From contig CAYQWZ010000005.1 of NCBI GenBank assembly GCA_964421635.1, positions 2,748 to 66,747 of the forward strand: a DNA stretch of 64,000 nucleotides, read 5' to 3'. Positions within the stretch are counted from its first letter, which is position 1. Each line of letters begins with the position of its first letter. Source of the DNA: an uncultured Candidatus Saccharibacteria bacterium. Its GTDB lineage: Bacteria > Patescibacteriota > UBA1384 > CAILIB01 > JAUSJZ01. Below the pieces are notes generated by a model. That model was not told the origin of the DNA. It saw only the letters and a program-made list of their open reading frames with translations, and did not search any database. Below, in pieces: positions 24,508 to 57,860 of the stretch. The translations under genes were made by a program, and so were the position numbers.

Positions 24508-24601
24508 CCATATCCATCAACAATCTATAGTAAATTTTCACTGTCAACAAAAAACTGCCATTGATAAAATTTAAACTTCTCTGCTAGCAGTAAGAGATGA
24601 A

Positions 24602-25315
24602 TTATTCGTGTCTTAAAGCATCTATTGGACTTAAAGCAGCCGCTTTCTTGGCCGGGTACCAACCAAAAACCAACCCCACTGCCATTGCTACTGATAAAGC
24701 CAAAATTATTGAGTTCATATTCATAGCCACACTTAAATCAAATAAGGAGCTGGCTAGATAAGCAAAAATATAACCCAATATAACCCCGACAATGCCACCA
24801 AGAGTAGTTAACACAATAGCCTCAATCATGAACTGAGATAGAATATCGCTTCGCTTAGCACCAATAGCTTTTAGTAATCCTATTTCTTTAGTCCGCTCGG
24901 CAATAGTAACCAACATAATATTCATTATGCCAATTCCACCAACCACTAAAGAGATAGCCGCAATTCCTGCTAATAAAGAGACCATAGTACTAGTAACACT
25001 ACTAATCGAATCAATCATTGACTGGGCACTTCTTAATCTAAAGTCAGCGTCGTCAGCGTTAGAAATACCATGATTGTCTAAAAGTACTTGCTCAACTGTC
25101 TCTGTATAGTCAGTCACTATTTCTGGATCAGAAATAGCCACACTAATAGAAGTTGGATTATCTGAACCAACTAAAATTTTTTGAGCTGTACCAATAGGCG
25201 TTAAAACATCTGAACTATCGTTAATAACCCCAATAACTCTGAAACTACTTTGGTCAACTCTAATTTTTTTACCAACTACAGATTGATTTTCACCAAAAAG
25301 CTCGGTCATCCGCAT
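24602..25315 (-). pseudogene. C-terminal fragment of MacB/FtsX-type ABC permease
   Basis: Translation matches the end of the MacB periplasmic domain plus the 4-TM FtsX domain (..TAERTKEIGLLKAIGA.., ..LSPIDALRHE); upstream in frame there is no MacB-like sequence (stop at 25373-25375) and no ATPase domain, so the gene is 5'-truncated. Confidence 0.7.
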
Positions 25316-27430: not shown

Positions 27431-27744
27431 ATAACTGTAAATAGAGTTTGCCCTTCATAAACATAATCTCCATTACTAACAGATAATCCTCTCACCACAC
27501 CACTGACAGAAGCCGTTATATCTACTGATCCTACCACCTCTATCTCACCAACTTCTGAAATAGAATTTATTACATTACCTTTTTCTACTTGGCCGTAGGT
27601 ATATTCAGTACTAGCCGAATCTTGATCTTTTTTAGTACCAAAAAAATAAAACAGACCTCCTGTGACTAAAACAGCAAGAATAATATATTTTAGAAAATTT
27701 TTTTTAAGCATAATTTTATTAGCTTCCCTTTGGCATGTTGCCAT
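27406..27744 (-). pseudogene. N-terminal fragment of HlyD-family membrane fusion protein
   Basis: 112 aa: signal-anchor plus first lipoyl-like half (..VSGVVRGLSVSNGDYVYEGQTLFTV..) but no coiled-coil or beta-barrel domains; compare intact paralog at 506-1747. Confidence 0.6.
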
Positions 27745-28036
27745 TCATCTTACGCATAGTGCGCATAGTATCTCTCATTTCCACCCTTTCTTCTTCAGAC
27801 ATATTTTCCATTCCCTCTGGCATCTCTGGTTTCACTTCTTCCATTTTCTGAGCAATCTCTTCTTCAGACAATCCTTGTTCTCGCCAATACTCTTGCATTA
27901 CCTCATTTTGACGTTCCATGTTTTTGGGGTTCATGTTAAAACGACCCCGATTATTTTGTTTCTTTAAAAAAAACCAACTGCCGAGTAAAACTATAACTAG
28001 CAGTAACAAAAAAATGATGATCTTCTTTTTCTTCAT
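27719..28036 (-). CDS. small secreted/anchored Met-rich protein
   Basis: 105 aa, N-terminal hydrophobic anchor, C-terminal half rich in M/E (MPEGMENMSEEERVEMRDTMRTMRKMNGNMP). Confidence 0.5.
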   Translation of the reverse strand: MKKKKIIIFLLLLVIVLLGSWFFLKKQNNRGRFNMNPKNMERQNEVMQEYWREQGLSEEEIAQKMEEVKPEMPEGMENMSEEERVEMRDTMRTMRKMNGNMPKGS

Positions 28037-28208
28037 ACACTTAATAAACTTACCCCCTCTTGTTAGTACTACGCATAACTGAGAAAATATATCTCAATTT
28101 ACAATATTAACTTTTTTAACAACCAATGATAACCAACATGAATGTTGTTTAAATTAGATTGGCTCTTGTCCAATTTAGCGGAGCTGACCGAGAAATAACA
28201 TTAATTCA

Positions 28209-28805
28209 TTAATAGTCTAGTGCGCCTTCTATGCCAGCTGCTGTTGCGTCCCAAACTCCAATAACTCTATCTAAAGCAGCCGTACTTTTGTCATACCAAG
28301 CCCAGTTAACTTTAGCGACAAAAGATGCATCACCAGTTTTTTGTGCCCGACTATCAGCCTCTTTAAACTCATTATCGTTCCATCCGGTAAAACCATTATG
28401 GTCATCTATAACATGGGTCATGTATTTGAAAAATTCGTTATAGTAACCGGCTAGCTCAATTTTTGACTGTAGATTCTCTTTCTCGCCTTCAAGAATTTCA
28501 ATTTGACTTTGTAATCCGGCAATTTGATCTGCAGTAGTTGCGCTACTATCAACCGCCACTGCCTCTGCTTCATCTGCCGTCTCATCTTCTTCTGCTTCCT
28601 CACTTTCCGGCTCTTCAACTTTTTCAGTCACATCGGCACCACTTAGCTGATCTATTAATTCTTTGTTCTTCTGCAACTGCCCATTATACATAGCGCCCAG
28701 AGACACCGAAGCTGCCAACAGCACTACCGCCACCGCAATGGCTATCGTTTTATTACTAATTTTTGACTTGAAAGCTGGCTTTGGTTTTGTTTCCATTTTA
28801 TTCAA
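28209..28805 (-). CDS. membrane-anchored coiled-coil hypothetical protein
   Basis: 198 aa, one TM helix, acidic linker, heptad-like segment LQSQIEILEGEKENLQSKIE. Confidence 0.55.
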   Translation of the reverse strand: MNKMETKPKPAFKSKISNKTIAIAVAVVLLAASVSLGAMYNGQLQKNKELIDQLSGADVTEKVEEPESEEAEEDETADEAEAVAVDSSATTADQIAGLQSQIEILEGEKENLQSKIELAGYYNEFFKYMTHVIDDHNGFTGWNDNEFKEADSRAQKTGDASFVAKVNWAWYDKSTAALDRVIGVWDATAAGIEGALDY

Positions 28806-28871
28806 TTAGTTTTTACATTTAAAAGCGCAATAGACATTACGAAAGGTTGATTTAATTATAACAAGATTTGC

Positions 28872-29924
28872 TTATTGACCAGTAATATTTTTTAAGATCG
28901 CCTCAGATTCATTTTCAGTAGCTAGTCTTGGTTGGCTATTGTGCTCAATAATCACGGAAATAAATTGATAATCTAGCAGCTCTTCGCCCTTCATCTGGTA
29001 TAATCCTATTACTCCCTCACTTGTTTTGCGCGACCAATTCTGATCAAAAACGAAATTTCCGTGCGAATACATTATTAGCCTGTCTTTGTATTGCTCCATA
29101 ATTTGCACCCAATGCGCATGATTCCCCAAAACTAAGTCGGCACCCGCATCTATAGCCGCATGCGCAATTTCAATTTGCCGCGCAGTTGGCTTATGAGTAT
29201 ACTCGTTGCCCCAATGAAACATAATAATTACGGCATCTGCTAGCTTGTCGGCAGCAGCAATTTCGGCCCGCACAATATTTAAATCAACATTTTTGACCTT
29301 TTTCTGATTAGCCGTCTCAACATCGTTATAGGCCAAAAAAGCGTACTTGGCACCATTGATTTCTCGAACTAAATTTTCTTCATCCTTAACCCCAATAGCT
29401 GCAATATTATTTTCTTGAAGGATTTCAATGGTTTCGCTCAATCCGGCCGTGCCTTTATTTTCAGCATGATTATTGGCAACAGATGCTATATCTACTCCCG
29501 TTTTTGCCAAGGCCGGCGCGTGCTGAAGATTGCCACAAAAGATCATTCCTTCACTTGTAAGTGGGCAGTTAGCAATTAAAGGTGATTCTAAATTGATAAA
29601 AGTCAGGTCAGCCGAATTAAGCAGTTCGGCCGTTTTTTGATAGGGCCAGCTAAAATTATTTTTATTTGAAGTTAACACATTAACATATCTACCAAGCATA
29701 ATATCGCCAGTTACTAGAAGCTTGATTGGTTTTATTTCAGCTTTTTTGGTAGCAATAGATAAATTTTTTATCGCTGGTCTGGTCGACTCTGGTGAACCAA
29801 TCTCTTGAAATAAAGATGCAAAAGAGAAAAGTTGGTCATATCTATCTATTTTTTGAGTGTATAAATAGATACTAAAAGAGTAAATTATTAATACGGCAGC
29901 TGTTATGGTTAAATATGGTTTCAT
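28872..29924 (-). CDS. CapA/PGA_cap-family metallophosphatase-like protein
   Basis: Signal-anchor; LLVTGDIMLGRYVN, ADLTFINLESP, FHWGNEY and GNHAHW motifs typical of CapA/YwtB calcineurin-like proteins. Confidence 0.7.
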   Translation of the reverse strand: MKPYLTITAAVLIIYSFSIYLYTQKIDRYDQLFSFASLFQEIGSPESTRPAIKNLSIATKKAEIKPIKLLVTGDIMLGRYVNVLTSNKNNFSWPYQKTAELLNSADLTFINLESPLIANCPLTSEGMIFCGNLQHAPALAKTGVDIASVANNHAENKGTAGLSETIEILQENNIAAIGVKDEENLVREINGAKYAFLAYNDVETANQKKVKNVDLNIVRAEIAAADKLADAVIIMFHWGNEYTHKPTARQIEIAHAAIDAGADLVLGNHAHWVQIMEQYKDRLIMYSHGNFVFDQNWSRKTSEGVIGLYQMKGEELLDYQFISVIIEHNSQPRLATENESEAILKNITGQ

Positions 29925-29955
29925 ATATTAATTTAGAAGACCTAACTCCTTGAAG

Positions 29956-30456
29956 TTAGGTCAAAAGGTCTGCTCGATTTACAGCTCGTACATTATGCTC
30001 AATCATCTGCTGAGCTTCGTTGAACACGAATCTTCCCCTTAGAATTTCACCGTCAAGCGCCCTTGGCAGCCACAAAACATCATCTGGCCACATGAGATCA
30101 AATGGTAATCCGTCAAAAGAAAACCATTGCGGATTCATCTCTTCTGTCTCAACCGGTTCCCCTTGCCAGCTGGTACAGAAATAAGTAAGAACTCTTTGGC
30201 TCCAAGCTATATTATGTGGGAAGAAGAAATCACTCACTACTCGTAGCTCCAAGCCGCCAACTACTACCCCTATTTCTTCTAGGGTTTCGCGGCGAGCTGA
30301 AGCTTCAACGGTTTCACCTTCTTCCGGTTTGCCGCCGGTTCCATTCCATTTTCCCTGACCGAACCCTCGTTTCTTCATAGCCAGAAGAACAGACCGCTCT
30401 TGTGTGTCGACCAAAAACACCAACGAGACCTGACGCAACTCTGTTGTTTCATTCAT
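29956..30456 (-). CDS. NUDIX hydrolase
   Basis: Nudix box GGKPEEGETVEASARRETLEEIGV. Confidence 0.8.
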   Translation of the reverse strand: MNETTELRQVSLVFLVDTQERSVLLAMKKRGFGQGKWNGTGGKPEEGETVEASARRETLEEIGVVVGGLELRVVSDFFFPHNIAWSQRVLTYFCTSWQGEPVETEEMNPQWFSFDGLPFDLMWPDDVLWLPRALDGEILRGRFVFNEAQQMIEHNVRAVNRADLLT

Positions 30457-30503
30457 GGCTTCACTCCTTCACTCTCATAATAGCAAATTGAATAAAAAAA
30501 AAT

Positions 30504-30530
30504 GCCTGCCCTAACTATTGTCAGGCAGGC
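30504..30530 (-). terminator. GC-rich palindrome family copy 1 (GCCTGCC-n13-GGCAGGC) acting as terminator of 30521-31561
   Basis: Hairpin immediately at the stop codon, followed on the minus strand by T9. Confidence 0.6.
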
Positions 30531-31561
30531 GGAGTTTGACCACGCGCGTCTTCGGCTCTTCTTTCTATTAAGTCTTGTAGCACTTCGGGTGGATAATGCC
30601 ACTCTGGCCGATTGTTCCCAGCGACTCTTTTCTGTCGTCGCTTACCTCTGATTCTATTTAGCACCCAGGTAAGACTTTTACCAACCCTTCTACTTAATTC
30701 ACATGTTGTGAGCCAATCTCCTGCTTCAACAAGTCTATTTACCTCAGGCCTTAATTCGTCAACTATTTCAGGAGGATAATGGATAAATATCTTACCCGAC
30801 CCAGGAATTCGTCTTAACTCTCCATCGGTACGACCTTTAAGACGAGCTCGAACCCATAAATAATCTTTTCCAAGTATGACAGCAATACTATGAGCACTTA
30901 ACCAGTCACCCCTTTCTAGATATTTATTAGACAGACCTTTGAGAATAGGTAATACCCACGGAGGCCAATGTCTAGTAACTCGGTTAGCTTTATTTGCCCG
31001 TTCTTCTCCGGGCTGATTCATCTGATCTAAACGGCTACCAATCCAGAGACGAGAACGACCTAGCTCTTGTGTCATATATCCCATGGTAATCCAGCCATTT
31101 GCCCCTTTACTCTCAGCTGACATCCTTACAAGTTCCGGAATAACCGCCAGAGGATAACAACGAAACACTCCGCCTCTGCAAATTCGTTTCTCATTAGGAA
31201 AGGGCAAACTTTCTATTCGTGCCTTGACCCACTTATAGCTCCTACCAACTCTGGAATATATTTGACCAACTGATAGCCAGTCTCGAGCAGGCTGGTACAG
31301 CCCAGAATCGTTCTCTTGTCGGCGTAGCTTTCTAAGTAAATTCGACAATAGTAGTAGCCTGTCATATATCCAGACTCGAGCCTCACCGTAATGCTCAAAT
31401 GTCATTTTACTTTCCCAAGCCCGCTTATAAACAAGCTCTACAATATTTCGTGCATCATGAGTGTCAAAAACCAGACTGATAGCACCACTTAGCAGGATTT
31501 CTTCTGTTGCTGTTTTGAATCGAGCGAACCTTTGAGCTCGTTGTTCATCTACCAACCTCAT
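30521..31561 (-). CDS. hypothetical protein with four tandem Trp-containing HTH-like repeats
   Basis: 346 aa, GC-elevated; repeats RDWLSVGQIYSRVGRSYKWVKARI / NGWITMGYMTQELGRSRLWIGSRL / GDWLSAHSIAVILGKDYLWVRARL / GDWLTTCELSRRVGKSLTWVLNRI. Confidence 0.65.
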   Translation of the reverse strand: MRLVDEQRAQRFARFKTATEEILLSGAISLVFDTHDARNIVELVYKRAWESKMTFEHYGEARVWIYDRLLLLSNLLRKLRRQENDSGLYQPARDWLSVGQIYSRVGRSYKWVKARIESLPFPNEKRICRGGVFRCYPLAVIPELVRMSAESKGANGWITMGYMTQELGRSRLWIGSRLDQMNQPGEERANKANRVTRHWPPWVLPILKGLSNKYLERGDWLSAHSIAVILGKDYLWVRARLKGRTDGELRRIPGSGKIFIHYPPEIVDELRPEVNRLVEAGDWLTTCELSRRVGKSLTWVLNRIRGKRRQKRVAGNNRPEWHYPPEVLQDLIERRAEDARGQTPPA

Positions 31562-31646
31562 CTTTCAACCTCCTTCCCGCTGAAGTTACTCTGTACAAGA
31601 GCACTCTTATCAAAACAAGAAAAGTTATTTAAACCAATAAAAAAAT

Positions 31647-31671
31647 GCCTGCCGACTATTGTCAGGCAGGC
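31647..31671 (-). terminator. GC-rich palindrome family copy 2 (near-identical to copy 1) acting as terminator of 31689-32450
   Basis: AAAAATGCCTGCCGACTATTGTCAGGCAGGCGG; T-run follows on the minus strand. Confidence 0.6.
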
Positions 31672-31688
31672 GGTTGGTAGGTCTTGTC

Positions 31689-32450
31689 TTACTCTTCGTC
31701 GAAGATGCGAAATGCTCGTTGCAGGTATGCAGTGACTTTTGTCATATCAAGTTGGTTTTGAGGATTACGCAACTGCCCTTCAGCATCAATGCTGAGAGTT
31801 GGCCACAGCTGGGCCATCCTTTCAATTGGCTCCAATGTGTCTGGCCCCAAGCCACCAGCCACAACAAGCTGAAAGTATTGGCCGTGCGAGATATTGATAG
31901 CACCAAGTCTTTCAACTGTAGCATCGGAATCGAATGGCAAGCCACGACCTCGGCTGAAATCTACTAAAACATAGTCAAACAGCTTGTGATATTTAGTCAG
32001 TTTGTATAACAGCTTATTCATGCTTCCAGTTTCTGTAATAGCAGCTCGACTGATTTGCATCACCAGCAGATCTTCAGGATACACCGTACGATACACTTTC
32101 AACATCTCAACCTCTGGCCATGGATGGTTGATTTGAGTTCCGTGACAGTGTTGTCCGCCCATTTCTCTGGCTTCCATAACACCATTTAGAGGGGTTTGTT
32201 CATCTTCGCCAATGCAGTAATGAATAAGGTTGAGTGCTCGTTTGTCTGGTGAGAAAATTTGGGACAATTGATTCGGCGGTGGTAAACGAGTGTAGCCAAC
32301 TAACACCCCTACCATCAAGCGATGAGTCGAATGGTTTGGCACCGCAGCCAAAGCTTGCGCCACCTCCGAGCCGGTAGTGAAGCCGGTAGCACCAATGTAC
32401 GGTGGCGCTTCTCTTGACATGTCAGTTCTCCTCCCATTTACTCGTATCAC
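31689..32450 (-). CDS. TIM-barrel protein, weakly phosphoribosylanthranilate-isomerase (TrpF)-like
   Basis: 253 aa, GC-elevated; ..SRGRGLPFDSDATVERL.. and ..VVAGGLGPDTLEPIERM...LSIDAEGQLRN resemble the TrpF phosphate-binding C-terminal half; assignment tentative. Confidence 0.5.
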   Translation of the reverse strand: MIRVNGRRTDMSREAPPYIGATGFTTGSEVAQALAAVPNHSTHRLMVGVLVGYTRLPPPNQLSQIFSPDKRALNLIHYCIGEDEQTPLNGVMEAREMGGQHCHGTQINHPWPEVEMLKVYRTVYPEDLLVMQISRAAITETGSMNKLLYKLTKYHKLFDYVLVDFSRGRGLPFDSDATVERLGAINISHGQYFQLVVAGGLGPDTLEPIERMAQLWPTLSIDAEGQLRNPQNQLDMTKVTAYLQRAFRIFDEE

Positions 32451-32883
32451 ATCGCTGAGATTCTCTCAGCTCAGTCAAAATGCGATCAACATGCTCGAGT
32501 GTCATGTAGCCTTCCGGCAACTGCACACCATCATCCGACAATACCTCTCTGAACAATGCATTGAGCTGGACGCCTGTAGGATTATTGCCAAGAGCCTGCA
32601 TAATGCGTTCCATAAGATCTTCCTCAAAAGCAGGCATCTCAATTTGAACAGCTTTCAGCATACACCCAAGCAACACAGTTTCCATAGAAACCAAAACGGC
32701 TTCGGCAACTGGAAACTGAGCTTTTGACAGGGAACCTGCAGTTATCGGCAAGTACTCTTTGCCCGCACCTCGTGAGAAGCGAACTGACCAGCTAGGATCG
32801 TTCTCAGAACCTTCAGTAAACATGATGAATAGGTCAAAAGGATTTGTCACAATCCCAAGAGCAGCTTCGAGTTCCATTTCCAC
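32422..32883 (-). CDS. hypothetical protein
   Basis: 153-aa ORF (GTG at 32883 or ATG at 32877), overlaps next gene by 29 nt (operon); preceded by conserved leader element. Confidence 0.5.
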   Translation of the reverse strand: MEMELEAALGIVTNPFDLFIMFTEGSENDPSWSVRFSRGAGKEYLPITAGSLSKAQFPVAEAVLVSMETVLLGCMLKAVQIEMPAFEEDLMERIMQALGNNPTGVQLNALFREVLSDDGVQLPEGYMTLEHVDRILTELRESQRCDTSKWEEN

Positions 32884-32895
32884 ACTCTCTTTCTA

Positions 32896-32922
32896 CGCTT
32901 TCGCGCTCTCACAAACTACCAG
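32896..32922 (-). promoter_or_regulatory. conserved 27-nt leader element copy 1 (minus strand CTGGTAGTTTGTGAGAGCGCGAAAGCG)
   Basis: Exact duplicate of element at 33229-33255, each 13-20 nt upstream of a start codon; contains GCGC-GAAA-GCG mini-hairpin. Confidence 0.5.
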
Positions 32923-32983
32923 TAATCAGCTATAGAAGTCAATAAAAAAACTGCCTTCCCCCGAGGAAAAGCAGCTAGATCTA

Positions 32984-33211
32984 CTATGAAGGTATACGAA
33001 ACCAAATGATCAAAAATAATGGGTTGAAAAGAAGCGTGCCACCAAGACAGACCATTAGAGTAGTAGTGCCGTAACTGTCAAACTCCTGAGGGTTACGAAA
33101 AGCCCACCATAGCTGTACAGTACATACAAGCAGAATTGCCAATCCCATTAGTCGATAGTTAATCATATTGTGATCCCAGAATTCAATGATCGCACCTATC
33201 GCGTTTTTCAT
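32984..33211 (-). CDS. small membrane protein
   Basis: 75 aa, two TM helices, RBS GAGGAAGGA upstream; preceded by leader element copy 2. Confidence 0.5.
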   Translation of the reverse strand: MKNAIGAIIEFWDHNMINYRLMGLAILLVCTVQLWWAFRNPQEFDSYGTTTLMVCLGGTLLFNPLFLIIWFRIPS

Positions 33212-33228
33212 ACCGTCCTTCCTCTCTG

Positions 33229-33255
33229 CGCTTTCGCGCTCTCACAAACTACCAG
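33229..33255 (-). promoter_or_regulatory. conserved 27-nt leader element copy 2
   Basis: Identical to 32896-32922. Confidence 0.5.
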
Positions 33256-33312
33256 AAAAGAACAGTAGTAGTCAACAAAAAAAGCCCCGGATAAATCCGA
33301 GACTGGAGGTAG

Positions 33313-33723
33313 CTACTTGCGTCTCATGCGAGCTGAAGGATGGTTAAAGTCCAAGAGTATAGTTCCGTTTTCTCCACATATGACTCGCCCGTCACGAAGA
33401 GCAAGGTTTATTCTGGGTCTAGTTGTGCTAAACAATGTAACGGTCAACCCTCGTGGACCCTCCACACAAGGAAATGATTTACTTACGATATTCCACTTCC
33501 TGCAGAATCTATCAACAAAGATATGGCCTCCTATTGTTGCTTTTTCAAAATCCTCTTCGGTTATTGGCAAACTACTGATCTGTCCCCAAACCCAGCACTT
33601 CGCGATAGATTCGAATGAATTCAGCACTGGCTCTATTGACACCAAACTCGTCAAGCACCTGACCTCGAACGGTCGGATGATGGAACTGCAATTGCTCATC
33701 ATAAAGCTTCTCGAGCAAACCAA
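33313..33723 (-). CDS. hypothetical protein (start uncertain; overlaps 33572-33913 in another frame)
   Basis: ORF ending just before a hairpin+T7 terminator (33270-33300 on minus strand); N-terminal 50 codons overlap the neighbouring ORF, so the true start may be internal. Confidence 0.4.
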   Translation of the reverse strand: MVCSRSFMMSNCSSIIRPFEVRCLTSLVSIEPVLNSFESIAKCWVWGQISSLPITEEDFEKATIGGHIFVDRFCRKWNIVSKSFPCVEGPRGLTVTLFSTTRPRINLALRDGRVICGENGTILLDFNHPSARMRRK

Positions 33724-33913
33724 TCACTTCTTCAAACTTCTCGGCACCTTGTTCAGATGCATACAACAAAAGGCTAATGATTTTACCTGAACAGTTTTCG
33801 CAGTTGTTTAAGAGTGTTTCAATGCGTTGCCATTGTTCAAATGTAAGCACCTCTGCAAGCTTCTCTTGAAACTTTTGCTTCAGTGCTTCTCTCATTGTGT
33901 CGTCTGCTGACAT
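33572..33913 (-). CDS. hypothetical helical protein (CENC motif)
   Basis: 113-aa ORF, helical composition, GC-elevated. Confidence 0.5.
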   Translation of the reverse strand: MSADDTMREALKQKFQEKLAEVLTFEQWQRIETLLNNCENCSGKIISLLLYASEQGAEKFEEVIGLLEKLYDEQLQFHHPTVRGQVLDEFGVNRASAEFIRIYREVLGLGTDQ

Positions 33914-34004
33914 GTGGCTCTCCTTCCTAATTAGACTCTAGCCAAATATATTACTTTAATCAATGCAAAAGTGATTATCGCTGAATATTTAAGGATTAAA
34001 AAAC

Positions 34005-34024
34005 TGCCTGCCGGTCGGCAGGCA
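34005..34024 (-). terminator. GC-rich palindrome family copy 3 (TGCCTGCCGG-TCGGCAGGCA)
   Basis: 10 nt downstream of stop of 34034-34342; followed on minus strand by T6. Confidence 0.55.
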
Positions 34025-34033
34025 AGCCTTACC

Positions 34034-34342
34034 CTATACGGGCTCGGCAAGGGTTAGTAGACCAGCGTCTACAAGAGTATCTTGTACTAGATTCAGCAGC
34101 TGTCCAGGTGGTCCGAAGACAATCAGCTTAAGTAGATCGCCTCGTTGCCCACCATCTTGGCAGACAACTACTACTGTTTCGCCATCACAAAGAATAATGT
34201 TGCTGCCAGGCGTAACACATTCGGTGCCCTGTGCTCGACTACCCCAGCCGCGAGCAACAAAACCGCGCTCTACACAATGTCGCCACACGCCCTCTAATCT
34301 TTCGCGCGCTCGCTCCAGCAGACCCTTCTCTGACTCTGACAT
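34034..34342 (-). CDS. hypothetical protein, GC-elevated
   Basis: 102-aa ORF with dedicated palindromic terminator. Confidence 0.5.
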   Translation of the reverse strand: MSESEKGLLERARERLEGVWRHCVERGFVARGWGSRAQGTECVTPGSNIILCDGETVVVVCQDGGQRGDLLKLIVFGPPGQLLNLVQDTLVDAGLLTLAEPV

Positions 34343-34421
34343 CCTTTTCTCCCTAAAATATAGGATATCAAAAAAATCAGCCCTTATTGCTGCTATTCAA
34401 TTTCTGCATACTGAAAAATTT

Positions 34422-34661
34422 CTATTTCACCAACAGCTCTAAAGCAAAGTAAACTAGATAAGCTGGCCAGACGATGGCTTTCAATAAACCAACGACGCCT
34501 GCGCCAAAAGTAGCTGCTTGACCTATAAAGTATACCGCCGCTCCAATTAAGCCAAGGCCGTAAACTCCACCGCCACCATGATGATAGCGTCGCCTGTCTT
34601 TACGACACTCTTTTCTCCATTCTCTCCACTCTTTCCAATCCTTTTTATCTTTTGTATTCAT
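34422..34661 (-). CDS. small Gly-zipper membrane protein
   Basis: 79 aa; basic N-terminus then GGGGVYGLGLIGAAVYFIGQAATFGAGVVGL. Confidence 0.45.
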   Translation of the reverse strand: MNTKDKKDWKEWREWRKECRKDRRRYHHGGGGVYGLGLIGAAVYFIGQAATFGAGVVGLLKAIVWPAYLVYFALELLVK

Positions 34662-34752
34662 GTTTTAATTATATCTCAAATCTAGAAGCGCAAGCTAATA
34701 ATTTTTTTTGGCTACTATACTTGGTATAATGACGGCAGGAGGATACGACCCC

Positions 34753-35034
34753 ATGATACTCTTCGCTGTCGGTAAGCAGACAAATGGTTGGGGAGGATAT
34801 CAGTGGCAATCCTATTTCGTAGTAGCCCAAAACGAAGCTGAAGCAATTGAGCTAGTTGATCGCTACTCCGGCGAAGGTTACTGGAGCAATCATCCCGACC
34901 CACCCACAGTAGTTGTAGTGGCAAGTTCAATCGATATCGTCCCTGGTATGCCTAAAATCTTCCCTATAGATTCACTTTGTGCACCCCGATTCTTCCCATC
35001 CGATGTGCCCACTCTAGCACCTCTAGTCATTTAA
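34753..35034 (+). CDS. hypothetical protein
   Basis: RBS AGGAGGA 11 nt before ATG at 34753, extended -10 TGGTATAAT upstream, perfect intrinsic terminator downstream (ORF track shows longer 34708 start). Confidence 0.55.
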   Translation: MILFAVGKQTNGWGGYQWQSYFVVAQNEAEAIELVDRYSGEGYWSNHPDPPTVVVVASSIDIVPGMPKIFPIDSLCAPRFFPSDVPTLAPLVI

Positions 35035-35042
35035 CACCTGTA

Positions 35043-35070
35043 GCCCCAGCATCACCGCTGGGGTTTTTTT
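35043..35070 (+). terminator. intrinsic terminator
   Basis: CCCCAGC-atcacc-GCTGGGG followed by T7. Confidence 0.8.
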
Positions 35071-35098
35071 ATTTATTATTAATTCCCTGCAAAAAAAC

Positions 35099-36133
35099 TT
35101 AAGGGGCAATATTGTTACCTGCCTTATTTGAATTTGAATTGCTATTCTGTTGGCCTCCACCACTTTGTTGAGCACCTTCACCAGCTGTTCCGTTTACCTC
35201 AACACTCCCCTCGGCATTACCCCCAACACCACCATCAACAGTATTTTGATTAACAGTGTTGGCTGAATTTGTCGTGCCACCATCAGTTGTGTTTACAATA
35301 ACCACATTGCTAGTCGTTGTTTTGGAATCACCAACCACCACCATACCACCCGCTTTATAACTATCAATCACCGAACCATCACTCATCTGAATTTTCCAGA
35401 CTCGCTTACCCCCTGTTGTAACTGAATTTGGACCAGTTCCCGGCGCATATTCAATCTTTAAATTACCTTGTTTATTTTGAGATATTTTACCCTCTCCTTG
35501 GTCAATAATTACTCCATCATTATCTGTAATTTTGTCACCTGGTGCATAAACACGCGATTCTTTATCTACATCTATTTTTACTGTCATTCCTTTAGGATCA
35601 CGCCAAACCGTTACTACTCGATCTACAAAATTATCAACTGTCTCCTCATCTTGAGAAGTGGCAAGAGCTTCTCTCATTCTATTAACAGCTCTCTCTTGAA
35701 CCTGAGCAATGGTTTCTTTTGTGGCACTACTTTGAGTCTCTTGACGCACCTGAGATAAAACCGCCTGTCGCTCAATAACATTCTGCTCTGATGTATCTAT
35801 TAAATCATCTTCTGTATTATCACTTTCTAGCCGAGAGCTCATACTTCCTTCTAAATATTCATACCGCTGCGCCAGTTTTTCTACTCTATCTTGCTGACCC
35901 GACGCATCTGCTACCTTAATTTCTTCGGTACGCTTAGTCGCCAATTCGTTCATTAAGGATACTTTATTTTCATGACGCCAAGTTAGAAGATGCAAACTTA
36001 TCCATTCTTTTGAGTACGTCCATCTAGATGGTAATTGATTTTCATCGGCAGCCCGAACTACTCCGGTGCCTGCAAACAGACCGAGACATATAATAAAACC
36101 GCCTAGGGCTAGTTTTGTTTTTGTGGTAGACAT
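35099..36133 (-). CDS. secreted G/T/N/S-rich protein
   Basis: Signal peptide begins at the internal MSTTKTKLALGGFIICLGLFAGTGVVRA (ORF track start 36214 probably too long); C-terminal third is low-complexity G/N/T/S. Confidence 0.6.
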   Translation of the reverse strand: MSTTKTKLALGGFIICLGLFAGTGVVRAADENQLPSRWTYSKEWISLHLLTWRHENKVSLMNELATKRTEEIKVADASGQQDRVEKLAQRYEYLEGSMSSRLESDNTEDDLIDTSEQNVIERQAVLSQVRQETQSSATKETIAQVQERAVNRMREALATSQDEETVDNFVDRVVTVWRDPKGMTVKIDVDKESRVYAPGDKITDNDGVIIDQGEGKISQNKQGNLKIEYAPGTGPNSVTTGGKRVWKIQMSDGSVIDSYKAGGMVVVGDSKTTTSNVVIVNTTDGGTTNSANTVNQNTVDGGVGGNAEGSVEVNGTAGEGAQQSGGGQQNSNSNSNKAGNNIAP

Positions 36134-36333
36134 AGAGCTAATATTAAGTAAATAGCTGGTATAACAAACAACACCCAGAGTAGAAGGTAAACACCATCTC
36201 GTGGATCGAACCAATCGAACCAGGTGATACCGACAATGATGCCGAGTGATATCAGCGACAACTTAAATAGCCCCATCTGCCACCAACGCAAAGTATAATC
36301 TTTAAAAAATCTCATCTTGTCTAAATTATACAC
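36109..36333 (-). CDS. small membrane protein
   Basis: 74 aa, two TM helices, overlaps downstream gene by ~25 nt. Confidence 0.4.
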   Translation of the reverse strand: MYNLDKMRFFKDYTLRWWQMGLFKLSLISLGIIVGITWFDWFDPRDGVYLLLWVLFVIPAIYLILALCLPQKQN

Positions 36334-36365
36334 CTCTTTCTTCAGTTTGCTATAATATTGATGTA

Positions 36366-36785
36366 ATGCTAATAAAAAATCCTGTGCTGTCGTTGAAAGT
36401 CGGTTGGTTAGTTGTAACTATTTTAGTTTTTCTAGACGCTTTTTTAGATTCTAAGCGAGGGGTAGAAGGTAATCCCCTATGGCAACCAATTGTGGAAAAG
36501 ATTGGCATTCAGAATATTTATATTCTGGTTCCTTTTGTCTTATTATTATTTTGGCTGGTAGTTAAATTTGGTGGCTGGTTAACCGCTCGTATTGACAAGA
36601 CCCCTCAAGCCGAAGAGCTGGTGTTAACTGCTTTGGTCCTAGTCTACGGTCTCTTTGATCTTTGGGTTATCGCCGTCGACTTTTTGAATTTCCACTTAAT
36701 TACTAATTACCGGTTGTTGGTTATCCCCCTGACTATCATTGCTGTCTTTTATGCTGTTTGGGCAGAGAAAAAACTTAAGCAATAA
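36366..36785 (+). CDS. polytopic membrane protein, hypothetical
   Basis: 139 aa, four hydrophobic helices. Confidence 0.55.
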   Translation: MLIKNPVLSLKVGWLVVTILVFLDAFLDSKRGVEGNPLWQPIVEKIGIQNIYILVPFVLLLFWLVVKFGGWLTARIDKTPQAEELVLTALVLVYGLFDLWVIAVDFLNFHLITNYRLLVIPLTIIAVFYAVWAEKKLKQ

Positions 36786-36799
36786 TTGCCTCTAATAGA

Positions 36800-37075
36800 T
36801 TACTTTTCAATACTAATAGCATGTCCATCTACAATTGCCTCAGCTAATTTTTGATGAGCCGAAGAAAGGATCCTCTGAAAAGTGCTTTGTGATGTTTCCA
36901 TTATCTTAGCAGAAGCCGTCTGGTTAAGTTTCTTTTTATATTTAAGACGCAGAACTTCACCTTCTTCTCTGGTCAAATTAATTACTTCAATCTCGCGCAA
37001 TCTAATTCCAGATGGCTTAAAGAATGTTGCTTTGGGTCGGAATTTAATCCTTTTTTTTAATCTCGGTCGGGCCAT
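36800..37075 (-). CDS. DUF134/UPF0251-family predicted DNA-binding protein
   Basis: MARPRLKKRIKFRPKATFFKPSGIRLREIEVINLTREEGEVLRLKY...IMETSQSTFQRILSSAHQKLAEAIVDGHAI matches the UPF0251 pattern (R-rich N-terminus, FKP-G, sigma-70 region-4-like HTH). Confidence 0.65.
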   Translation of the reverse strand: MARPRLKKRIKFRPKATFFKPSGIRLREIEVINLTREEGEVLRLKYKKKLNQTASAKIMETSQSTFQRILSSAHQKLAEAIVDGHAISIEK

Positions 37076-37076
37076 A

Positions 37077-37277
37077 TTAGCAAAATTCTCCCTGCATCAA
37101 ACTCTCGCACTTAGGACATTTTATTTCAACGCAAGGCACACCCCGCTTATTATGTGTCTTTTTATATCCACACTTTGGACAGATACATTTGCTTGAGCCA
37201 ATTGGACCTTCTCCACGACGATTCGCACCACGAACAAAATCATTGCCACTATTTCCTGTTTTGTCTTTATTAGGCAT
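37077..37277 (-). CDS. small Cys-rich zinc-ribbon protein
   Basis: 66 aa with CxCPKCGY...CxxxxCPKC pairs; 1 nt from DUF134 gene. Confidence 0.55.
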
Positions 37278-37376
37278 AGTCTAATATTTATTACTTATAT
37301 CTTTATGAGTATATACCCATAACGATATTAAGTCAAAAACCTAAAAAGCCTAATTTGAATAAGGTCTAATTGGCTC

Positions 37377-37396
37377 CCTGCCTGCCGGCAGGCAGG
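37377..37396. repeat. GC-rich palindrome family copy 4: perfect 20-nt palindrome CCTGCCTGCCGGCAGGCAGG
   Basis: Identical to copy at 39188-39207 including 4 flanking nt (GCTC); lies 3' of gene 37484-38164; no adjacent T-run. Confidence 0.8.
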
Positions 37397-37483
37397 CTCA
37401 CCTTAGACGCTATTGGAACTTTTTCTCAACCCTAGGCTCCAATCGCTTTACGCAATTGAGAGCCGAGGTGTTGAGATCATGCC

Positions 37484-38164
37484 TCACCCCCTAAAGGCTT
37501 GATTAGCTATCTTACTGCCCAGATATGTTACTGCGTAGGCCTCGCCTGATTCTTCCGTATCACGTCGTTCTATCAAACCTTGGTTGAGTAGGAACCTTAA
37601 CAAGGCAACGATCCGATCTGCATCCATTTGTGATAGGTGCTGATCGATCAGGTTGGTTAACGGAACCACCCTCTCACTCAGTGACACAAGGATCTCAAAC
37701 CAGTCTGAGCAATGAATCATTCTGCCTAGCACATTAGAGGTGCCCCCTTTGAAATAGACAGAGATCAGTTCGCAGGTGGACTGAACACATCCAAGAAGTT
37801 GGATATATGACTCTGCCACAGACAGCTCAGCTGCTACAACCGTTAAGGAAATGGGAAGGAGCTCACGCTCTCTCAGCACACCAACGAACAAGTGAAGGAG
37901 CCTATCCAGTTCTTCGCGACGACCAAGCGCCATCCATTCTATCACGCGAAGAAAGAGCGTTTCTCTGATTGCGCGCACGGCACATACAGCAGCTTGATAC
38001 GGTTCTCCACCCTTGATCTCTCCGCTCCGTAGGAAGTCGATACTCTCTCCCACAAGAGTGGCTATATCCTCTGGCTGTGGCAACAATATCACATTGGCAC
38101 CTAACTCTCTCGCCCTGTTAACGAGCCTACGTTCCTCTTCAGTCATTTCGATTAGCTTCGTCAT
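37484..38164 (-). CDS. hypothetical protein, GC-elevated, possible C-terminal winged-helix
   Basis: 226-aa ORF; no homology recognised. Confidence 0.5.
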   Translation of the reverse strand: MTKLIEMTEEERRLVNRARELGANVILLPQPEDIATLVGESIDFLRSGEIKGGEPYQAAVCAVRAIRETLFLRVIEWMALGRREELDRLLHLFVGVLRERELLPISLTVVAAELSVAESYIQLLGCVQSTCELISVYFKGGTSNVLGRMIHCSDWFEILVSLSERVVPLTNLIDQHLSQMDADRIVALLRFLLNQGLIERRDTEESGEAYAVTYLGSKIANQAFRG

Positions 38165-38230
38165 GTCGCGCCTCCTAACAAGGAGTCTAGCAAAACGTTT
38201 ACTTTTGTCAACTATTCTTTACGATTATAT

Positions 38231-38259
38231 TGACTTTACAGGTTAATTATGTTACAATA
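38231..38259 (+). promoter_or_regulatory. sigma-70-like promoter TTGACT-17-TACAAT giving leaderless or near-leaderless transcript
   Basis: -10 hexamer ends 5 nt before the GTG start at 38265. Confidence 0.5.
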
Positions 38260-38264
38260 TTTAT

Positions 38265-39014
38265 GTGAAAAAGGAGGATATTCTTCAAAAACTTAATGCC
38301 TTGCACTTCAGTGATAGCGAGGCAAAAACATATATTGCCCTGCTTCAAATTGGACAAACTCCAGCAGGAAAAATCATTAAACGCACTAGTCTACACCGAG
38401 CTGTAGTATATGCGTCCTTAGACAAGCTCATCGATCGCCATCTGGTTATGAAGGTTGAGCGCGATCACATCGCTCATTTTCAGGCACTCTCATTGGAACG
38501 ACTCACTGACTACACTACCAACCTACAACAGCAAGCGAAAAGTCTCGTTAAAGAACTAAAGTACATCAGTAATGACGAACGACCTGAAATTGTCGTTTAT
38601 GAAGGACTGCGTGCTTACCAACAGTTTTGGCTTGAATCACTAGACCGTATGCCTGTTGGCAGCATTAATTATGTTGCCGGGTCGATTGGTGATACCTGGA
38701 ATGAACTGCTTGGCAGCAAATCAAAAGAGTACGTCAAACGACACTTGCAGCGTAAGATCATGTGGCAAATGATTGTGTACGATCGTAACCAAATCGACGA
38801 ACAGTTACGCGAGAAGTATCCAAAATATCATAACTATCGCTTAATTAAGCGACCTATGTCCCGTTTAGGAAATTTTAACTTAATGGGAGAGGAGACTGTA
38901 GTACTCCACTCCACTCAGGGGCCATTGGTTATCGAGGTTCGCAGCAAAGCCCTCTATGACGTCTTCAAAGATATCTTTGATCTAATGTGGGATTTTGGTA
39001 AGGAAATAAGATAG
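38265..39014 (+). CDS. TrmB-family transcriptional regulator
   Basis: N-terminal TrmB HTH (LHFSDSEAKTYIALLQIGQTPAGKIIKRTSLHRAVVYASLDKLIDRHLV), GTG start. Confidence 0.7.
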   Translation: MKKEDILQKLNALHFSDSEAKTYIALLQIGQTPAGKIIKRTSLHRAVVYASLDKLIDRHLVMKVERDHIAHFQALSLERLTDYTTNLQQQAKSLVKELKYISNDERPEIVVYEGLRAYQQFWLESLDRMPVGSINYVAGSIGDTWNELLGSKSKEYVKRHLQRKIMWQMIVYDRNQIDEQLREKYPKYHNYRLIKRPMSRLGNFNLMGEETVVLHSTQGPLVIEVRSKALYDVFKDIFDLMWDFGKEIR

Positions 39015-39065
39015 CCTTTCGAAAGAACGACTAAACCCCACCCACTTCATACTTTGTTCTAATTT

Positions 39066-39140
39066 TGGCTCCTGGGGTCGGATTCGAACCGACAACCTAG
39101 TGATTAACAGTCACTTGCTCTACCATTGAGCTACCCAGGA
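39066..39140 (-). tRNA. tRNA-Asn (anticodon GTT)
   Basis: Minus-strand 75-nt cloverleaf TCCTGGG-TA-GCTCAATGGTAGAGC-A-AGTGA-CTGTTAA-TCACT-AGGTT-GTCGGTTCGAATCCGAC-CCCAGGA-G-CCA; 7-bp acceptor, T-loop TTCGAAT, encoded CCA. Confidence 0.85.
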
Positions 39141-39176
39141 TTAAATTGTTTGATCCATTCTCTTCCTTCACCACAT

Positions 39177-39227
39177 GTCACTTGCTCCCTGCCTGCCGGC
39201 AGGCAGGTACCATTGAGCTACCCAGGA
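39177..39227 (-). repeat. duplicated 5' fragment of tRNA-Asn (acceptor 5' strand + D-arm + start of anticodon stem) interrupted by the 20-nt palindrome
   Basis: Minus strand reads TCCTGGGTAGCTCAATGGTA-[CCTGCCTGCCGGCAGGCAGG]-GAGCAAGTGAC, identical to tRNA positions 1-20 and 21-31, then diverges; lies 37 nt upstream of the intact tRNA. Confidence 0.8.
39188..39207. repeat. GC-rich palindrome family copy 5 (perfect 20-mer) inserted in tRNA-Asn fragment
   Basis: CCTGCCTGCCGGCAGGCAGG, identical to 37377-37396. Confidence 0.8.
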
Positions 39228-39299
39228 TCAAATTTTGTGTAGCCAAAAAATTTTGACTACTTCTGAAATTTACCAGAACTAGCCAAATATTTCAACCTT

Positions 39300-39623
39300 T
39301 TAAGCGCGAACTGCTAACCCGTAGGCCAACAGATATTTCTTTAAAGATTCAGGATTTGTCTTTGGCTGGGGACTATCTTCGTCAGCAAAATCAGATATTA
39401 AATTTTGCAGAGTGCGTAGTTCAGCCATATATTGTATGTTTTTTGAGTCGTCTCTTGTCTTGGCAACTAATTCAAGCGCTCTTTCAGCTGCATTTTGCGC
39501 CAATTCAGCCTTCTTTTTCTTCTGCCAAGAGAACATTCGACTTACCTCACTGCCAATGTTAGCCATCTGCTCATAAATTGTTAGCTCTTCCCACTTTTTC
39601 ATTTCAAATTTATTCTTCGTCAA
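39300..39623 (-). CDS. hypothetical helical protein
   Basis: 107-aa ORF; no confident homology. Confidence 0.45.
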   Translation of the reverse strand: MTKNKFEMKKWEELTIYEQMANIGSEVSRMFSWQKKKKAELAQNAAERALELVAKTRDDSKNIQYMAELRTLQNLISDFADEDSPQPKTNPESLKKYLLAYGLAVRA

Positions 39624-39917
39624 TTATTAATTCATTAACAATATCTGTAATATCTTGTCGTATTTTTTTATCCTTTATATTCATGCTAAGGTTTTCGCCT
39701 GATCGAATATTAATAAGTGAATCGAACTCTAACCGTTCTGTTTTGGGCAAATCAGGATAAATATTAAAACCCCACAAATCCTTCGATTTAGAACCTTTTT
39801 GAAGAAGGATTGCCTCAGAATCTGAATGCATACCACCGCTTTGACCATATCACCAAAAGTCTCTTCGGCAGCCTTTTTTATCACCGATAATTTAATCGGA
39901 TTTTCAATCATTTTCAT
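39610..39917 (-). pseudogene. two overlapping ORFs in different frames (39729-39917 and 39610-39831): possible frameshifted small gene with acidic C-terminus
   Basis: Frame A: MKMIENPIKLSVIKKAAEETFGDMVKAVV..; frame B continues ..HSDSEAILLQKGSKSKDLWGF....DITDIVNELIIDEE; frames switch near 39830. Confidence 0.3.
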
Positions 39918-40007
39918 ACTACTAAATTACCACAGGAATAGCGCTCACTTAAAAAATAAAATATTAATACAAATGGTAAACTAGTAATAAGTTCTAATGT
40001 TTATTAT

Positions 40008-40466
40008 ATGAAAAAATTCAAATGGTTATGGTGGTTGTTGCTACTGTTAGTATTATTTCTAGGATGGATATCATATTTAGCTAATCAAAAAAATATCAAT
40101 TTCTTTTCCGAGTTTGAACAAACCGTCAAAACTAATATAAATGAATCAGTCGAAGTGATTGTATTCGACTCCGAGACTAAAGAGCCAAGATCTGGAATCC
40201 GGGTGTCGAACAGCGCTCCTAGCCCATCATGTAAAGCTCTCCAAGGTCTTAACCCTTGTGGAGAGGGAGACCCCAATCAATACGATGAAGATAGAACTGA
40301 TGAAAACGGTAGAGCCAAGGTGACTTTGTACATAACAGACAAAAACCGAGAACAAGGCTATACAACCATTTCAGTAGGAGGAAGCTCTTATCATGAAGAT
40401 CAAGCAGTTAAAATTTATCTAGATAATATCCAATCACCAATCAAGGTGATCTTACAACGAAAATAA
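40008..40466 (+). CDS. secreted hypothetical protein
   Basis: 152 aa, signal peptide/anchor (WWLLLLLVLFLGWISYLA). Confidence 0.55.
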   Translation: MKKFKWLWWLLLLLVLFLGWISYLANQKNINFFSEFEQTVKTNINESVEVIVFDSETKEPRSGIRVSNSAPSPSCKALQGLNPCGEGDPNQYDEDRTDENGRAKVTLYITDKNREQGYTTISVGGSSYHEDQAVKIYLDNIQSPIKVILQRK

Positions 40467-40477
40467 ATATTATATTT

Positions 40478-40822
40478 TTATGCCACCAAGAACTCTAAAT
40501 ATCCTAACTCAGCAGTAGATAAATTGGCGAATATTGCCTGAGCAGTAGCCTCTGTTTCATCTTCGTCTAACTTGGCATCATAAAGATGAATCATCTCATG
40601 AAGGATTGTTATAACTCTTTCGTTTATTGGTAATAGTTGATTAATAAAGATCTCGTTCTGATCTGGAATAATAAGACCACGAACTTTGCAGCTAGCGCGC
40701 TTAAGATTAATCTCATAGCCAGATTGCACCAAAGCTTTGGTTAACTGATTGAGTTGAATTGTTCGAGCCCCTGCCTTTTTCATAAATTGAATGATTATAC
40801 CCAAATAAAAGGGGTTTTGCAA
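40478..40822 (-). CDS. hypothetical protein with HExxH motif (ImmA/IrrE-like metallopeptidase motif ILHEMIHLY)
   Basis: 114-aa ORF; single HEMIH motif; assignment weak. Confidence 0.35.
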   Translation of the reverse strand: MQNPFYLGIIIQFMKKAGARTIQLNQLTKALVQSGYEINLKRASCKVRGLIIPDQNEIFINQLLPINERVITILHEMIHLYDAKLDEDETEATAQAIFANLSTAELGYLEFLVA

Positions 40823-57834: not shown

Positions 57835-57860
57835 GGCGCGCCCGCAGGCGCGCCTTTTTT
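57835..57860 (+). terminator. intrinsic terminator (self-complementary GGCGCGCC-cgca-GGCGCGCC + T6)
   Basis: Perfect 8-bp GC stem followed by TTTTTTGG; preceded by A-run so could act bidirectionally. Confidence 0.7.

Follow-up and report, generated by a model that had tools for sequence, protein, structure and literature searches.

Native composition of an ORFan-rich gene block at the tRNA-Asn locus of a Candidatus Saccharibacteria bacterium, and a palindrome-cut tRNA copy beside it

This report deals with a gene block of ~8.8 kb from a Candidatus Saccharibacteria bacterium (assembly GCA_964421635.1, contig CAYQWZ010000005.1). It covers positions 30494–39300 of the 64-kb stretch of DNA that was analyzed (the window, whose numbering is used for all positions) and extends from a Nudix gene to a tRNA-Asn gene. 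Between the Nudix gene (29956–30456) and tRNA-Asn (39066–39140) lie 14 genes, on which the list of open reading frames (ORFs) and the gene calls on an identical ENA contig agree. An earlier note on this DNA had described the block as a GC-elevated, strand-biased island of ORFans with the signature of a horizontally acquired or hypervariable region. The landmarks that it named (Nudix, DUF134, Cys-rich peptide, TrmB, and tRNA-Asn) were recovered where it had placed them. The locus carries the following features:

29956–30456, minus strand: Nudix hydrolase, left neighbor of the block (Pfam PF00293, E 1.5e-16; GC 0.471)
30496–30532, minus strand: terminator hairpin GCCTGCCTGACAATAGTTAGGGCAGGC with T-run, a near-duplicate of 31639–31673
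30521–31561, minus strand: 346-aa predicted DNA-binding protein with a helical N-terminal domain and four tandem winged helix-turn-helix (wHTH) repeats of ~62 aa
31639–31673, minus strand: terminator hairpin, second copy of the 30496–30532 module
31689–32420, minus strand: 243-aa predicted TrpF-like (ribulose-phosphate-binding) TIM-barrel enzyme, from a Patescibacteria-wide family without a Pfam model
32422–32877, minus strand: 151-aa ORFan, the stop codon of which abuts the start of the TIM-barrel gene
32889–32950, minus strand: 62-nt promoter/leader module (−35 box TTGAC, GCGCGAAAGCGC hairpin, Shine-Dalgarno (SD) motif), first copy
32984–33211, minus strand: 75-aa hydrophobic protein, by eye a predicted two-helix membrane protein
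33222–33283, minus strand: second copy of the 62-nt promoter/leader module, with 84% identity to the first
33572–33913, minus strand: 113-aa protein, no family match
34003–34026, minus strand: terminator hairpin CTTGCCTGCCGACCGGCAGGCAG with T-run, a 20-bp palindrome with two additional central bases
34034–34342, minus strand: 102-aa protein, no family match; its GC of 0.53 is the highest among the block genes
34422–34661, minus strand: 79-aa predicted membrane protein, basic at the N-terminus and hydrophobic and Gly-rich at the C-terminus
34753–35034, plus strand: 93-aa protein, no family match
35099–36133, minus strand: 344-aa protein, predicted to be secreted or surface-located, bearing a signal-peptide-like segment at the N-terminus and a tail rich in G/N/S/T
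36366–36785, plus strand: 139-aa multi-pass membrane protein, predicted from sequence
36800–37075, minus strand: small DNA-binding protein of family DUF134 (PF02001, E 7.5e-15, 55.7 bits vs. a Pfam cutoff of 27)
37077–37277, minus strand: 66-aa Cys-rich zinc-ribbon-like peptide (CxxC...CxxC), only weak library matches
37377–37396, no strand assigned: solo exact 20-bp palindrome CCTGCCTGCCGGCAGGCAGG, with the 226-aa gene on one side and the promoter of the Cys-rich peptide and DUF134 genes on the other
37484–38164, minus strand: 226-aa ORFan, no homologue found
38265–39014, plus strand: TrmB-family transcriptional regulator with an N-terminal wHTH domain (PF01978, E 1.5e-9, 38 bits vs. a cutoff of 25.6)
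39066–39140, minus strand: intact tRNA-Asn(GTT) (ARAGORN; Rfam, 75.5 bits)
39141–39176, minus strand: 36-nt spacer opening with ATG TGG TGA
39177–39239, minus strand: pseudo-copy of tRNA-Asn positions 1–32 together with 12 nt of upstream sequence (repeat alignment)

The base composition of the block genes was compared with that of a housekeeping set from the window (n = 10; iPGM, a DEAD-box helicase, phosphoenolpyruvate (PEP) synthase, RecA, FtsK, two class II aminoacyl-tRNA synthetases, YchF, SerRS, and SecA). GC is 0.443 for block genes and 0.438 for housekeeping genes (Mann-Whitney p = 0.88), and GC at third codon positions (GC3) is 0.387 and 0.388, respectively (Mann-Whitney p = 0.58). The codon-usage distance between block and housekeeping genes is 3.55, which lies inside the null obtained from random splits of the housekeeping set (3.06 ± 0.55, maximum 4.6), and codon usage in the block is thus native. 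Along the window, GC varies between 0.35 and 0.51 per kb, and several patches are richer than the block (e.g., 57–60 kb at 0.51), while the envelope-related left 30 kb has a GC of 0.381. AT-rich stretches (GC 0.31–0.42) lie on either side of the block (24600–29950 and 39300–40820), and its apparent GC richness is due to the contrast with these neighbors and with the left 30 kb; the claim that its genes are GC-richer than the housekeeping background is not upheld. Because the GC of the Nudix gene is already block-like, the compositional step is found at ~29.95 kb and not at 30.49 kb. Besides DUF5674 and a DUF6782-like peptide, the AT-rich flanks code for small proteins of the secreted or membrane type. 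The minus-strand bias exists (11 of the 14 called block genes) but is not block-specific: 13 of the 14 genes in the flanks (27.4–30.5 and 39.3–48.5 kb) are also on the minus strand, so that the bias spans ~21 kb.

Several observations concern the coding status of the block. A codon model that had been trained on conserved native genes preferred the annotated frame over the others in 14 of 16 block ORFs. GC at the first codon position (GC1) exceeds that at the second (GC2) in 13 of 15, and GC3 is not lower than in housekeeping genes. The intergenic DNA contains promoter-like sites, SD motifs, and terminators consisting of a hairpin and a T-run, which delimit separate transcription units; the ribosome-binding sites ahead of genes are of the type GGAGG. 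There is no called gene across 33212–33571 (360 nt). Two ORFs are absent from the public gene calls. One of ~85 aa (33313–33570) stops just short of a terminator, and a different frame scores higher than its own; the other, a hydrophobic ORF of 74 aa (36109–36333), scores best in its own frame. The block may be organized into roughly nine or ten transcription units, several with a sigma-70-like promoter, most with a strong GGAGG ribosome-binding site, and several ending in a GC-rich hairpin terminator. Predicted products would comprise one TrpF-like sugar-phosphate TIM-barrel enzyme, about six small membrane or secreted proteins, and several DNA-binding proteins (the sigma-like protein with four wHTH repeats, DUF134 with its zinc-ribbon partner, and TrmB), from which we infer regulatory and surface roles for the block genes.

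Only DUF134 and TrmB are matched by Pfam among the 15 block proteins (13 have no match), compared to ~30 of 47 proteins elsewhere in the window (Fisher p = 8e-4). The genes are short, as had been claimed, with a median length of 108 aa compared to 218 aa elsewhere in the window (p = 0.003). Searches of the ORFans against PHROGs, PADLOC, and NCBIfam returned nothing significant. Four block proteins were searched in depth (346, 243, 226, and 151 aa), and no homologue was found for two of them. This ORFan enrichment supports an accessory, lineage-specific character of the block. The statement that almost none of the genes has a recognizable function holds for the Pfam count but is overstated, because the 243-aa gene belongs to a TIM-barrel family found throughout the Candidate Phyla Radiation (CPR).

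The 346-aa protein has just 8 homologues among 5.8e9 proteins (26%–50% identity), all of them in chromosomal CPR contexts. Its repeats share the signature GDWLT..LG.S..WV..R...HYPP and are modeled as winged HTH units by AlphaFold2 (AF2; predicted local distance difference test (pLDDT) 81.7). A Foldseek search with this model matched RacA, SoxR (MerR-type), and Xis at the domain level only (probability 0.84–0.98, E > 0.4). The N-terminus shows a weak likeness to region 2 of extracytoplasmic function (ECF) sigma factors (NCBIfam SigH, E 1e-4; PDB SigH, E 0.013). Assignment as an ECF sigma factor was rejected, given a score of 21.8 bits compared to a cutoff of 251 and the presence of four wHTH repeats where region 4 is expected. 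PDB sequence searches with the 243-, 226-, and 346-aa proteins returned either nothing or weak sigma-factor matches.

The 243-aa protein conforms to the TrpF fold. A profile comparison to phosphoribosylanthranilate isomerase (PRAI) in the PDB gave a weak match (E 0.024), and Pfam gave none. Conserved in the family are an invariant Asp in VLVDFS (strand E150–154 of the model, the sixth by count), a GG pair, and a DAE motif; a conserved Cys on strand 1 was not found by inspection. We therefore call the protein only TrpF-like. The best match in a library of 5.8 billion proteins has 43% identity, and homologues are labeled Sungbacteria, Parcubacteria, WWE3, or Patescibacteria and reside in ordinary chromosomal neighborhoods. 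Another homologue (34% identity) is encoded at 203654–204382 of an uncultured huge phage of 485 kb (LR745208.1). Long forms of the family (358 aa) were considered as fusions with the 151-aa neighbor, which was ruled out. The 151-aa protein retrieved only itself from 5.8 billion proteins in a word-indexed search, which reaches only relatives sharing exact 5-residue words. Its gene probably forms one operon with the TIM-barrel gene, given the abutting stop and start codons.

Only 1 nt separates the gene for the Cys-rich peptide from the downstream DUF134 gene, and the two are thus probably co-translated. Among 1.84 billion representatives searched exhaustively with HMMER, the 226-aa protein retrieved only itself, and its PDB search was empty; when read by eye, its C-terminus may be a winged helix, which would make it a possible fourth DNA-binding protein. 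Scores of the TrmB protein against NCBIfam equivalogs are far under the cutoffs, so that no specific TrmB orthologue can be assigned. An apparent variant of TrmB in a 90% cluster proved on inspection to be the same DNA.

A hairpin family with the arms GCCTGCC/GGCAGGC occurs in five copies (at 30504, 31647, 34006, 37380, and 39191). All are in the block, in which the earlier note had seen copies of a terminator palindrome at several genes; the other 55 kb of the window contain none, and none is expected from shuffled sequences. Three of the five are followed by T-runs. We envisage the hairpins as local copies or derivatives of the 20-bp palindrome, three of which would now act as terminators. 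A relaxed Rfam search of the block revealed no further tRNA-like fragments and no riboswitches, and a tRNA origin is thus not supported for the solo palindrome at 37377. The two copies of the 62-nt module are located upstream of two adjacent transcription units. Duplicates within the block are restricted to regulatory modules; no genes are duplicated.

One copy of the palindrome resides in the pseudo-copy of tRNA-Asn. This is cut by the exact 20-bp sequence (39188–39207) between GGTA of the D-loop and GAGC of the D-stem, and it is located 36 nt upstream of tRNA-Asn, on the side facing away from the block. Islands of the integrase type carry a 3' fragment of the tRNA at their far end. At the far end of the block (~30.5 kb), a repeat search of the window detected no tRNA-derived repeat. 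The scar was therefore rejected as an integrase attachment (att) site of the block: it is on the side of the tRNA where such a site is not expected, and it represents the 5' half, again not the expected one. It was also rejected as the remnant of a group I intron because Rfam finds no ribozyme and the spacer is too short for one.

A similar arrangement was encountered in other contigs, where copies of tRNA halves with the invariant 20-bp palindrome are found beside GIY-YIG genes (several CPR contigs and one viral contig). From four of these (L020, L037, L103, and L109), we defined the architecture of a mini-element. Its coordinates are:

L020: 5920–6313, 13455–13820, 17792–18251, 18724–19106, and 20572–20787
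L037: 1165–1582
L103: 490–819
L109: 6509–7260

L020 is the closest relative with respect to PGA_cap, a neighbor of the block. In this contig, the palindrome cuts 5' copies of two tRNA-Leu, one of them with the anticodon CAG, and, there with one mismatch, of tRNA-Gly(TCC), always at the same D-loop position as in the window. In two of the three cases, a GIY-YIG ORF of ~80 aa comes next and then the intact tRNA. A fourth GIY-YIG gene has an intact tRNA-Gly(GCC) on one side and a copy of the 3' part of that tRNA on the other, and tRNAs, GIY-YIG genes, and palindromes are dense within 20 kb. In the viral contig L103, a 5' half of tRNA-Lys carries the palindrome at the D-loop position seen in the window and is accompanied by a GIY-YIG ORF. 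In L037, a 5' part of tRNA-Gln that carries two different palindromic inserts precedes a GIY-YIG ORF, after which comes an intact tRNA-Gln. L109 carries tRNA-Lys pseudo-copies, one on either side of an intact tRNA-Lys, with a double hairpin of 30 nt in the anticodon loop; a GIY-YIG ORF comes after each of the two. The small ORFs (~72–96 aa) are assigned to GIY-YIG by PF01541 (E 1e-14), and in the fetched CPR loci, 7 of the 8 full-length ones are located 3–108 nt from a tRNA. In literature searches, neither the palindrome nor the layout of tRNA half and GIY-YIG gene was found to have been described.

The exact 20-mer is present in 35 stretches of IMG/VR viral contigs of 38%–68% GC, in some of them in several copies (the viral palindrome loci are L072–L106), while two composition-matched control palindromes have 0 matches. 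When the four central bases were freed (CCTGCCTGNNNNCAGGCAGG), 47 stretches were found, 12 more than with the exact sequence, so that the CCGG center accounts for 35 of 47. Short direct repeats flank some palindrome copies (L074, L080, and L026). In phage contig L096 (2239–2330), the palindrome is located in the variable loop of a tRNA-Met, which ARAGORN calls as a 92-nt tRNA; excision restores a standard tRNA-Met. The related phage L073 (~8570–8650) has the same tRNA-Met insert and a truncated T-arm. An adapter or assembly artefact was rejected as the source of the palindrome, because the flanks form a contiguous tRNA, independent samples assemble identically, and the controls have 0 compared to 35 matches.

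With considerable reservation, we propose that the 20-bp palindrome is, or is the signature of, a self-propagating micro-element that has been domesticated as terminators in the block, and that together with the GIY-YIG genes it represents a class of tRNA mini-parasites for which we found no description. Such an element would insert precisely and without target duplication into tRNA genes, the sites seen being the junction of the D-loop with the 3' strand of the D-stem and the variable loop; the palindrome also occurs in intergenic DNA of CPR bacteria and phages of very different GC. As found in other CPR genomes, an intact mini-element consists of a displaced tRNA 5' half with the palindrome in its D-loop, a GIY-YIG gene of ~80 aa, and an intact tRNA. 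The parasite would thus copy part of its target and leave the host with a working tRNA. The scar in the window has the partial tRNA with the palindrome and lacks the GIY-YIG ORF (no GIY-YIG homologue is encoded in the window), and it was filed as a decayed remnant and not as a member. Its spacer opens with ATG TGG TGA at the place where the GIY-YIG ORFs begin in L020 and L103 and is therefore read as a deletion remnant; by comparison with these two contigs, it would be the stump of a deleted GIY-YIG ORF. Judging from this sequence comparison, the scar most likely represents the remains of a tiny selfish tRNA-targeting element that is not related to the block. The repeat beside the tRNA, which had been counted among the signs of an island, is thus real but matches a different element.

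The layout was compared with known systems. SegB of phage T4 is a free-standing GIY-YIG homing endonuclease in a tRNA gene cluster (PMC2330249). The small GIY-YIG genes in the related CPR contigs are likewise directly beside tRNA genes, which fits a putative selfish nuclease that exploits tRNA loci. They differ in that the CPR ORF is flanked by a palindrome-interrupted partial tRNA duplicate and that the ORF is gone in the window. In Patescibacteria, group I introns have been described at position 35/36 of tRNA-Asn and tRNA-Asp (PMC13011429). These share with our case the phylum, the tRNA, and a breakpoint in the anticodon loop (32–35 in the window; 35/36 for tRNA-Leu in L020), but the 36-nt spacer and the 240-nt ORF of L020 are too small for a ribozyme, and a complete, uninterrupted tRNA follows.

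Known small GC-rich palindromic repeats are the repetitive extragenic palindromes and bacterial interspersed mosaic elements (REP/BIME), the Rickettsia palindromic elements, and the GC clusters of yeast mitochondria. The palindrome resembles them in being short, GC-rich, and multicopy, in lying after genes, where a role as terminator is possible, and in also being inserted inside RNA genes. The palindrome described here differs from REP/BIME-type repeats in having only 20 bp, in being perfect, and in being identical across contigs of 38%–68% GC; we know of no transposase associated with it. Integron cassette arrays resemble the block in having small, mostly co-oriented ORFs, each with a palindromic element after it. 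However, the block has no IntI, at least some of its genes have their own promoters, and perfect stems followed by T-runs indicate terminators and not an attC structure, as judged from the hairpins with no attC model run.

With respect to mobility, the absence of an integrase had already been pointed out, and neither Pfam nor NCBIfam detected a recombinase, integrase, or transposase among the 15 block proteins. PHROGs gave only two matches (E 1e-3 to 5e-3), both of unknown function, and PADLOC none for 10 block proteins. When the 15 block proteins were compared by tblastn to 50,697 phage records, the single match was the TIM barrel; only the generic DUF134 was found in 72,556 plasmid records. 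The window encodes RecA, RecX, FtsK, SecA, several class II aminoacyl-tRNA synthetases, YchF, iPGM, and a Znu-type ATP-binding cassette (ABC) transporter; together with the GGAGG ribosome-binding sites, these mark it as bacterial. Homologues of block and flank proteins are labeled Sungbacteria, Parcubacteria, WWE3, and the "Patescibacteria group", on contigs that are CPR-like (small genes, many hypotheticals, Mur and aminoacyl-tRNA synthetase neighbors). A Joint Genome Institute (JGI) metagenome scan with the PGA_cap neighbor returned 52 loci with at best 48% identity, none of which has a block gene. Other contigs with this locus (8 of 8) are 100% identical in DNA, and look-ups of exact proteins likewise yielded nothing but contigs identical to the window.

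We consider it somewhat likely (with a probability of roughly 0.55) that the block is a native chromosomal neighborhood of short, fast-evolving, lineage-specific genes and not a recent import. Horizontal acquisition, as had been proposed, is disfavored by the native GC, GC3, and codon usage, by the lack of mobility homologues, and by the phylum-wide TIM-barrel gene. The ORFan appearance would largely result from the isolation of the lineage, in which even conserved proteins have no relative above ~50% and short proteins would fall below detection; the genes would owe their ORFan status to rapid divergence. There is also evidence that weighs against a native neighborhood. Because the ORFan enrichment is real when compared to the remainder of this genome, lineage isolation cannot be the whole story. 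The clustering of all five hairpins in the block (p ~4e-4) hints at a distinct local history. The GC-normalized tetranucleotide correlation with the window average is 0.49–0.69 in the block compared to 0.80–0.89 for typical housekeeping regions, and native-codon scores are lowest (~0 bits per codon) for the 346- and 226-aa genes. Finally, the nearest relatives, with ~40%–50% protein identity and no synteny, are too distant for a comparison of gene order. As to the tetranucleotide deviation, which had been suggested as a check, the dip in the block is present, but the regions at 5–11 kb and 24–28 kb deviate equally or more.

The block might alternatively be an old island that integrated at or near tRNA-Asn, has since ameliorated, and has lost its integrase and att repeats. 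Adjacency to the tRNA, the enrichment in ORFans and short genes, the tetranucleotide dip, the confinement of the hairpin family to the block, and the AT-rich DNA on both sides would fit such an origin, and islands of the tyrosine-integrase type likewise lie beside a tRNA, contain genes of unknown function, and have a partial tRNA copy close by. They differ from the block, which has native GC, GC3, and codon usage and no integrase or recombinase, no tRNA-derived repeat at its 30.5-kb end, and as its sole tRNA fragment a 5' (not 3') half on the non-block side. As the TIM-barrel family is, moreover, phylum-wide, we regard an old island as rather unlikely. A turnover hotspot, in which the palindromic micro-element and tRNA-targeting GIY-YIG elements shuffle native and novel small genes through rounds of insertion, duplication, and deletion, would make the region hypervariable without being foreign. 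Five hairpins in 8.8 of 64 kb, the duplicated terminator and 62-nt promoter modules, the decayed element at the tRNA, and the dense tRNA/GIY-YIG/palindrome activity in L020 speak for it; it is nevertheless doubtful, as contigs from other samples are 100% identical and thus give no hint of variation still going on, a GIY-YIG gene is absent from the window, and the block has no gene duplicates.

A degraded prophage, a satellite, or an anti-phage defense island is very unlikely. The genes are small and co-oriented, several encode HTH proteins, the 346-aa repeats are Xis/MerR-like, and the TIM barrel has a homologue in a huge phage. These likenesses are set against the lack of significant matches in PHROGs and of any in PADLOC, a tblastn phage match that is confined to the TIM barrel, and the absence of capsid, terminase, integrase, and nuclease genes. 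That many of the ORFs are not genes, in a region that is largely non-coding or pseudogenized, might be suspected from their shortness, their lack of homologues, and the 360-nt stretch without a called gene. It is hardly credible given that 14 of 16 ORFs score best in the annotated frame, that SD motifs and terminators flank them, and that GC1 exceeds GC2 in 13 of 15.

Three regions outside the block were noted. Both strands of the patch richest in GC (57600–59700, between SerRS and SecA; GC 0.51–0.57) carry ORFs in several frames, which score poorly for native codon usage, and neither Pfam nor Rfam finds a match there. As a candidate for foreign or non-coding DNA, this patch is better than the block. 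A 1975-aa protein is encoded at 5181–11108, where the tetranucleotide deviation is the strongest of the window (correlation ~0.4). Its only recognized domain is a C-terminal Peptidase_S74 (endosialidase-chaperone), and it may be a fiber-like surface protein. The PEP synthase (40878–43349) has a best match of 51% among 185,579 species genomes; matches of 45%–51% are from Dehalococcoidia, Bathyarchaeia/archaeal MAGs, and others, with no useful synteny. From these matches, the enzyme may be archaeal-like, or its lineage may merely be poorly sampled.

Taken as a genomic island, the block is ordinary for a CPR genome, and it is the recurring tRNA-half/palindrome/GIY-YIG layout that deserves follow-up. 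Given the native composition observed here, short unannotated genes beside a tRNA are insufficient to call an acquired island in CPR genomes. The block adds to the catalogue a phylum-wide TrpF-like family without a Pfam model, a rare family with a sigma-like domain and four winged-HTH units, and two proteins for which our searches detected no homologue (226 and 151 aa). Should the layout prove to be a true mobile system, it would illustrate how selfish nucleases can colonize essential tRNA genes in extremely reduced genomes without killing the host, and it would account for some of the tRNA fragments that annotation pipelines ignore.

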